A stretch of DNA of 17,929 nucleotides from a virus (Duplodnaviria; Heunggongvirae; Uroviricota; Caudoviricetes): IMG/VR virus record IMGVR_UViG_2548876946_000015, positions 1 to 17,929 of that record. One strand, written 5' to 3'. The number at the start of each line of letters is the position of its first letter. Position 1 is the first letter of the stretch. The notes beneath the pieces are model-generated. The model saw nothing but the letters and a program-made list of their open reading frames with translations, was not told where the DNA came from and made no database searches. Positions 10,296 through 10,455 of the stretch are shown here, piece by piece. The position numbers were made by a program, and so were the translations under genes.

Positions 10296-10363
10296 TGAGT
10301 AGCCACTCCTTAGTTTTGAGCAGGATACCAGATGATAATGTGTAGTTGGAGTAGCGCGGTTGT

Positions 10364-10397
10364 AATGCAAGCATTTTGTTTTAGTTTTATGCTTGCT
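10364..10397. repeat. Operator-like inverted repeat IR1 (AATGCAAGCAT ... ATGCTTGC)
   Basis: AATGCAAGCAT at 10364-10374 and its reverse-complement core ATGCTTGC at 10389-10396, separated by 14 bp, in the divergent intergenic region. Confidence 0.45.
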
Positions 10398-10422
10398 TGT
10401 ATGTGTGTACAGTGTATATAAT
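10393..10422 (+). promoter_or_regulatory. Candidate sigma70 promoter for the 322-aa gene
   Basis: TTGCTT (10393-10398), 18-bp spacer, perfect TATAAT (10417-10422). The -10 element and predicted transcription start overlap IR2. Confidence 0.4.
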
Positions 10423-10455
10423 GCAAGCATACATCACAACAAAGGTGCTTGCATT
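10420..10455. repeat. Operator-like inverted repeat IR2 (AATGCAAGCAT ... TGCTTGCATT)
   Basis: Second copy of the 12-bp TAATGCAAGCAT at 10419-10430 (first copy at 10363-10374) with an inverted partner TGCTTGCAT at 10446-10454, ending 1 nt before the ATG at 10456. Confidence 0.45.

Follow-up and report, generated by a model that had tools for sequence, protein, structure and literature searches.

Several proteins repress their own promoters through an N-terminal DNA-binding domain, among them PutA, which carries a ribbon-helix-helix, BirA, and methyltransferases of the SsoII/EcoRII type, which carry an N-terminal helix-turn-helix. Prophages offer a second precedent, in that accessory and antirepressor genes such as the Gifsy antirepressors, ant of SPC32H and tum of 186 are repressed by LexA. 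Here we analyze a set of short repeats that lies across the promoter and start of a gene for a 322-amino-acid (aa) protein with a P63C domain, carried by a P22-like Escherichia coli prophage. The DNA is a 17,929-nucleotide (nt) stretch of a Caudoviricetes virus (IMG/VR record IMGVR_UViG_2548876946_000015, positions 1 to 17,929), referred to throughout as the window; all positions are given on it. A third system with which the repeats can be compared is aba, the element of the BstA protein. It acts as DNA, comprises 29 bp upstream of bstA and 34 bp of the coding start, works in cognate protein–element pairs, has direct CCCGCC repeats at its ends, and acts only at high copy (PMC8585504).

A sequence-only reading of the window had proposed that the repeats form a repressor operator, possibly an autoregulatory one. 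Our analysis resolves them into four sites and favors, with a probability of roughly 0.65, the explanation that the N-terminal arm of the 322-aa protein recognizes these heptamers and represses the protein's own gene, that is, negative autoregulation. The regulatory logic is already known. What appears to be undescribed is the pairing of this protein motif with this site, the portability of the pair and the breadth of its distribution; a search of the literature on P63C, on the decamer that contains the site and on L0095 of phage 933W turned up nothing functional.

Results

Four heptamer sites at the promoter and gene start

The repeat coordinates given in the sequence-only reading for the promoter and start of the 322-aa gene are all exact. 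The 12-mer TAATGCAAGCAT is present at 10363–10374 and 10419–10430, with ATGCTTGC at 10389–10396, 14 nt past the first copy, and TGCTTGCAT at 10446–10454, 15 nt past the second. The second copy overlaps a TATAAT hexamer and the ATG follows at 10456, again as first described. A repeat search of the window recovered the TAATGCAAGCAT pair as an exact 12-nt direct repeat and also found a perfect 12-bp inverted repeat, ATAATGCAAGCA/TGCTTGCATTAT, at 10418–10429 and 10446–10457. The element is real, but it does not consist of two copies of an inverted repeat. Rather, it is a row of four heptamers in alternating orientation, GCAAGCA centered at 10370 and 10426 and TGCTTGC centered at 10393 and 10449, with spacings of 23, 33 and 23 bp (Table 1).

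The clustering of these sites is their distinguishing feature. Over the whole window, matches to the decamer ATGCWWGCAT with at most one mismatch show no excess (7 against 4.95 expected, with 7 or more in 46 of 200 shuffles). Four of the seven, both exact matches included, fall inside 90 bp, and because only about 0.025 would be expected per 90 bp, four in one such stretch are by simple arithmetic very improbable by chance. A search for further copies did not find the decamer elsewhere in two phage genomes.

The sites also keep fixed positions on a putative promoter. A hexamer of the TAnnAT type stands immediately before GCAAGCA in nearly all relatives (TATAAT, TATTAT, TAAAAT, TAATAT, TATCAT, or TG-n-TTTAAT), and we assign the promoter because this conserved −10 is fused to site 3. 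Transcription would then start at about 10429–10430. By our own reading, TTGCTT (10393–10398) may serve as a weak −35-like hexamer, with three of six consensus matches and an 18-bp spacer. The overlap expected of a repressor operator is thus found, with four sites of fixed position on the −35, on the −10 and +1, and in the early transcribed region.

Conservation singles out the same sites. Our homolog set comprised 74 viral loci with 52–100% protein identity. When 32 distinct upstream regions are aligned, the columns without variation coincide exactly with the four sites; spacers and flanks cannot be aligned, the flanking genes differ, and many cassettes begin just after an unrelated intrinsic terminator. 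Counted from the ATG, the sites keep to positions −89, −66, −33 and −10, and the last of them, found at −7 to −11 across relatives, fills the gap between the ribosome-binding site (RBS) and the ATG in these relatives too. A set of 25 close variants of the window's own cassette differs at 30 of 153 positions, only one of which belongs to the 28 core positions (hypergeometric P = 0.011). Because the four sites stand out as a footprint and show none of the covariation that pairing would leave (see below), they are best interpreted as DNA sites to which a protein binds.

The arrangement reaches well beyond close relatives. The same sites are present in very distant homologs, including ORF23 of ST104 (29% identity) and those of Burkholderia phage Bups phi1, Pseudomonas phage Lodos and Paracoccus phage Pkon1, and in part in that of Gordonia phage Barco. 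Homologs with these sites upstream come from Gamma-, Beta- and Alphaproteobacteria, Actinobacteria, Chloroflexi, Planctomycetes, Chlamydiae and others. Alternating orientation is a general feature in the various phyla, but the spacings differ, so that the 23/33/23 geometry is specific to the lineage of the window. In the E. coli phages 933W and BP-4795 and their relatives, ACGTGCA/TGCACGT is found instead, at the same place, upstream of a TATGAT −10. Since the type of site differs inside one host species, a universal host factor is an unlikely reader. Separately, the short leader from site 3 to site 4 (10431–10442) retains a TTTCACA(A/G)C-like stretch in most relatives, including the 933W-type cassettes with their other sites.

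An N-terminal motif varies together with the sites

The 322-aa protein carries near its N terminus a basic arm of 26 residues (26–28 in the family) with the pattern GG-ARA-x2-LT-x-EQR-SEIAKKAAAARW, which we propose as the DNA-binding element. The motif matches no DNA-binding family in Pfam or NCBIfam. The genes L071–L078 are mosaic, sharing about 97% identity with the window over the operator and ~39 initial codons but only 30–60% over the remainder of the protein; since identity falls after about codon 39, recombination appears to have taken place just past the motif.

We tabulated motif state against upstream sites for phage examples together with 80 further loci, which a sub-family alignment had located in representative genomes of species from many phyla. 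A locus was counted when at least two exact copies of GCAAGCA lay within 200 nt upstream, the background being 0.034 copies per 200 nt of coding DNA. With Ile or Val at motif position 17, 52 of 64 loci carry such sites. With any other residue none of 30 does, and GCACGCA is found in 7 of these and TGCACGT in 5. Homologs without the motif (7 in all) have no such sites either. Because the pairings of Ile or Val with a central A and of Ser, Ala or Gly with a central C recur, position 17 may be the residue that reads the central base, Ile and Val going with GCA-A-GCA, and Ser, Ala and Gly with GCA-C-GCA or TGCACGT. On a tree of the protein bodies the motif states are interspersed, requiring at least 19 changes, and the GCACGCA type occurs in at least six places.

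The association was also recovered from the side of the DNA. A scan of viral contigs for TGCAAGCA-N12-18-TGCTTGCA returned 120 loci, at 61 of which an open reading frame (ORF) with both the motif and P63C starts a median of 55 nt downstream. Another 55 have neither, a number that chance matches to the 16 specified bases could explain if our guess at the size of the collection is right. At two of the loci (L287 and L329) the motif is joined to a RhuM body (PF13310) that is unrelated to P63C, and sites precede the gene, the last lying at the ATG; a third RhuM gene with the motif (L338) has sites too, and six RhuM homologs that lack the motif have none. Since P63C and RhuM genes alike pair the motif with the sites, the sites follow the motif across two unrelated families.

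The motif has a life outside these long proteins as well. It occurs in hundreds of small proteins of 50–130 aa, usually at the C terminus and often in 2–4 copies, and a search with the motif by itself finds it in at least 304 protein cluster representatives. In one such stand-alone context (L134), a neighbor encodes a 393-aa protein with a BstA_C domain.

Together, the footprint, the fixed positions relative to the −10 and the ATG, the lack of an RNA hairpin and the covariation of the motif back the proposal of a repressor operator that is possibly autoregulatory. Two binders had been named, the 322-aa protein and the phage repressor. Motif covariation speaks for the first and, since the heptamers were not found in the immunity operators of the phages, the second is disfavored; for all of these reasons we favor probable autoregulation over control by the prophage repressor.

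Alternative explanations

One alternative is that the sites are cognate self-immunity DNA of the aba kind, possibly beside autoregulation, and that the P63C protein is a defense or abortive-infection effector. Amplified by prophage replication, the sites would titrate or switch off the protein and thereby spare the prophage's own lytic growth. As with aba, the heptamers flank the start of the gene and fall into cognate specificity classes. P63C homologs often lie directly downstream of a prophage repressor gene (ST104, Midgardsormr38, SI8, Javan515), which is the conserved position of bstA, and in the window the P63C gene has a SieA-like exclusion gene as its neighbor, the hotspot that they share being one with Panacea-domain and antirepressor cargo elsewhere. 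We nevertheless consider this explanation unlikely. The repressor-adjacent homologs are exactly those without the motif and sites. The 322-aa protein shows no detectable homology to BstA, KilA-N or BstA_C and no match in PADLOC or NCBIfam; Pfam searches of 15 diverse members at E ≤ 1 return P63C alone, not a BstA-type protein; and in the literature we found no defense phenotype for any P63C protein. The elements differ too, in that aba has none of the promoter-overlap logic and carries direct CCCGCC repeats where the window has alternating heptamers, and transcriptional control already accounts for the overlap of the sites with the −35, the −10 and the spacer between RBS and ATG. An undescribed portable DNA-binding tag, with a recognition helix that reads GCA-N-GCA and a position 17 that sets the central base, might combine both roles, autoregulating the gene to which it is fused (P63C or RhuM) and giving a prophage defense or toxic effector an aba-like self-recognition, in which sites multiplied by prophage replication would neutralize the protein and distinct classes would block cross-exploitation between phages; this extension we hold to be speculative and doubtful.

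Host LexA could instead be the main regulator, acting through the TTGT-N8-ACAG box GCTTGTATGTGTGTACAGTG in the spacer and making the gene SOS-inducible, although this strikes us as decidedly unlikely. We scored boxes with a position weight matrix built from classical SOS boxes, whose training range is 12.2–27 bits. The GCTTGTATGTGTGTACAGTG box is the window's third-best match and lies exactly between the −35 and the −10, and at the same position the loci L030, L032, L062 and L069 have boxes of 14.8–16.8 bits, within the range of genuine ones. The window's own box, however, falls short of the weakest training box; close relatives differ at 4 of the 20 positions in the box, a sign that it is not under constraint; most family members lack any LexA box; and such a box would leave the four conserved heptamers unexplained. 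We therefore rejected LexA control of the window copy, the box being sub-threshold and unconstrained among close relatives. SOS control is plausible for some family members and, for the window copy, doubtful or vestigial.

Elsewhere in the window the same matrix gives 19.7 bits, in the range of genuine E. coli LexA boxes, to an SOS-box-like palindrome, CTCTGTATACACATACAGTA, at 15171–15190. It lies between the ORF of a 92-aa acyltransferase fragment (14746–15024, minus strand) and a gene for a 346-aa O-antigen acyltransferase (15354–16394, minus strand).

It is quite improbable that the sites are operators for some other repressor, whether the prophage CI or Cro, an immI repressor of the Mnt/Arc type, or a host factor. 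The element does lie in the region where P22 has its Mnt/Arc-controlled Pant, and phage vB_EcoP-611R6 has mnt and arc directly downstream of the same cassette. Yet the window has no ORF for mnt or arc and has kept all four sites, which does not fit Mnt/Arc operators, and the same sites are found in many phyla, in phages and prophages whose repressors are unrelated. Moreover, within one host species the type of site switches along with the N-terminal motif, and the sites accompany the motif into RhuM genes.

A hairpin in RNA or single-stranded DNA is highly improbable. In this explanation sites 3 and 4 would form a stem in the 5′ untranslated region that sequesters the RBS and controls translation or mRNA stability. 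They can indeed pair as a stem of 10–12 bp, with the Shine-Dalgarno in the loop and the ATG at the foot, and over both candidate stems 95% of the alignment cells from the 32 upstream regions are pairable. Covariation, however, is at the level of shuffles (score 0.043 against a shuffle mean of 0.041), with 1 compensatory cell in 576; 9 of 18 pairs are invariant, and where a single arm has changed the other does not compensate. It is this lack of compensatory change in the 32 aligned regions on which we rejected the hairpin. The left arm, moreover, being fused to the −10, would span about −6 to +1 and hence be largely untranscribed; in the 933W type the three sites lie upstream of the −10; and the conservation of primary sequence from phylum to phylum goes beyond what structure alone would need. 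Transposon ends or iterons were discarded on inspection, all four sites being on one side of the gene and in alternating orientation.

The gene, its cassette and its surroundings

The match of the 322-aa protein to P63C (PF10546) scores 52.7 bits against a cut-off of 26.1, which places it in this Pfam family, and the protein matches PHROG 2384 at 1.7e-104. No significant match was obtained to the Ant, KilA or Bro families, and all fold matches were sub-threshold. In distant P63C homologs the segment VDEATGYQ is strongly conserved, being invariant in an alignment of six sequences. The clade of the window protein has YALAGYR in its place (aa 176–190) and has lost the acidic pair, a difference that may mark a functional split in the P63C family.

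The gene sits in an accessory-gene hotspot of the prophage. The local order is injection proteins, a SieA-like gene on the minus strand, a 160-bp intergenic region with the repeats, the 322-aa gene and a 3′ remnant of ant, followed by the tailspike, a GDSL esterase, an O-antigen acyltransferase and the integrase. In vB_EcoP-611R6 the cassette lies upstream of an intact mnt-arc-ant and beside a different divergent gene, and its neighbor varies among other prophages that carry it. Because 611R6 has both the cassette and an intact mnt-arc-ant, the cassette is an independent insertion in the immI accessory-gene hotspot and not a replacement of ant. Between the P63C gene and the tailspike, positions ~11471–11699 match the 3′ end of P22 ant and the ant–tailspike junction at 93%; since only the 3′ end of ant matches, mnt, arc and the greater part of ant, all intact in 611R6, have been lost from this prophage.

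Table 1. Coordinates of the four sites, the associated promoter and gene, and adjoining features of the window
Feature	Position	Strand	Remarks
Site 1, ATGCAAGCAT	10365–10374 (core GCAAGCA 10367–10373)	+	Center ~60 bp upstream of the putative transcription start; core columns (near-)invariant in 32 upstream regions
Site 2, ATGCTTGCTT	10389–10398 (core TGCTTGC 10390–10396)	−	Center at about −37 from the putative start; overlaps the −35-like TTGCTT
Site 3, ATGCAAGCAT	10421–10430 (core GCAAGCA 10423–10429)	+	Center at about −4; covers the end of the −10 and the putative +1
Site 4, GTGCTTGCAT	10445–10454 (core TGCTTGC 10446–10452)	−	Center at about +20; between Shine-Dalgarno-like AAAGG (10441–10445) and ATG 10456
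−10 hexamer TATAAT	10417–10422	+	Fused to site 3
LexA/SOS-box-like GCTTGTATGTGTGTACAGTG (TTGT-N8-ACAG)	10395–10414		In the −35/−10 spacer; 9.8 bits
322-aa P63C-domain gene	10456–11424	+	N-terminal arm; beta-rich domain aa 43–134; helical P63C region aa 199–286
Coding region of N-terminal motif G13–W38, GGIARAKSLTKEQRSEIAKKAAAARW	10492–10569	+	Proposed DNA-binding arm; motif position 17 is Ile29, codon 10540–10542
Mobile cassette (operator/promoter and gene)	10306–11454	+	98% identical in phage vB_EcoP-611R6
SieA-like membrane protein gene, divergent	9657–10295	−	PHROG 7745, 1.6e-20; outside the cassette

Several other features of this neighborhood were observed. The left edge of the cassette is an element of ~45 bp, beginning CCTTAGTTTTGAGCAGGATACCAGATGATAATG, at 10306–10352. 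Copies of it also precede L0095 in 933W and are present in more than 80 E. coli genomes devoid of the P63C gene, and in two genomes that we checked it flanks other hotspot cargo, namely a LexA-family regulator with a P22AR antirepressor, and a Panacea-domain protein. Its role could be that of a recombination junction or of a leader for the divergent gene. A terminator-like hairpin, AGCCTATGTCATAGGCT, with a weak T tract after it, lies at 10247–10263 on the minus strand, where the SieA-like ORF has its opening codons; the hairpin could be fortuitous, or the ORF may have been given the wrong start codon. In the region 11679–14661, the tailspike combines a P22-type head-binding domain with a weak match to GDSL lipases/esterases, and a separate GDSL esterase gene follows on the opposite strand. 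The pair points to deacetylation of the O antigen as the receptor activity, rather than to an endorhamnosidase.

Discussion

Under the negative autoregulation that we favor, the cassette would be a self-contained unit of one sigma-70-type promoter and one gene. The arm would read the GCAAGCA heptamers in a sequence-specific manner, and an oligomer of the protein would occupy the upstream site 1, the −35, the −10 and +1, and the region between RBS and ATG. Such occupancy would shut off the gene's own transcription and keep the amount of protein in the lysogen low and buffered.

A number of points weigh against this model. The evidence is comparative throughout, and it is from comparison that we infer that the protein binds the sites, that it does so as an oligomer and as a repressor, and where transcription starts. 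A consensus promoter scan calls no promoter at the operator region, where the −35 is poor. The center-to-center distance of 23 bp is not an integral number of helical turns, and the spacing varies between phyla, so that any geometry proposed for the bound complex would be tentative. The arm itself is modeled as two short helices at low confidence (predicted local distance difference test about 50–66), and sub-threshold matches to folds like Bro-N and KilA-N suggest that another domain of the protein could add DNA binding. As to the covariation, 12 of the 64 loci with Ile or Val at position 17 lack two exact sites, three stand-alone small proteins with the Ile-type motif have no GCAAGCA sites nearby, and the counts, like the Fisher test applied to them, ignore kinship among the loci. 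Finally, the N-terminal codons adjoin the sites, and in the mosaic genes co-inheritance of the two could reflect linkage alone.

The proposed pairing may be relevant in several respects. First, prophages and genomic islands abound in P63C and RhuM proteins, and for both families our analysis provides a testable handle, consisting of a 7-bp site, a 26-residue motif and one residue predicted to set specificity (Ile for GCAAGCA, Ser or Ala for GCACGCA). Second, confirmation would add a very small and widespread DNA-binding module to the known repertoire, and would allow promoters and operators to be predicted for hundreds of uncharacterized genes of mobile elements in many phyla. Third, if confirmed, autoregulation would imply that the levels of these proteins are tightly buffered, as is typical of toxic or defense effectors. 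More practically, the specificity classes could serve as compact, orthogonal repressor–operator pairs.

It is useful to contrast the locus with the systems that it most resembles. It shares with the LexA-repressed prophage genes an antirepressor-type location and, in some relatives of the cassette, a good SOS box in the spacer; what the family conserves, however, is the set of heptamers and not the SOS box. With BstA and aba it has in common a prophage accessory gene, a short element across the start of that gene, cognate classes, and family members that lie downstream of a repressor gene. Unlike that system, it shows no homology in sequence or domains, and its heptamers map onto the −35, the −10 and the RBS–ATG spacer. 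Compared with immI of P22, the cassette occupies the same place between the injection genes and the tailspike, and in both cases operators overlap the promoter of an accessory or regulatory gene. The heptamer sites, by contrast, are specific to their family and found far outside P22-like phages; no mnt or arc is present in the window, and in 611R6 the cassette is separate from the mnt-arc-ant of that phage. In function, the locus resembles proteins of the PutA, BirA and SsoII type, where an N-terminal module on a protein of other function acts at inverted repeats over its own promoter in a self-contained cassette, the binding being predicted in our case. Unlike those proteins, the one described here would rely on a module of ~26 residues that matches no curated DNA-binding family, would read four alternating sites of 7 bp, and would be portable between two protein families, P63C and RhuM.
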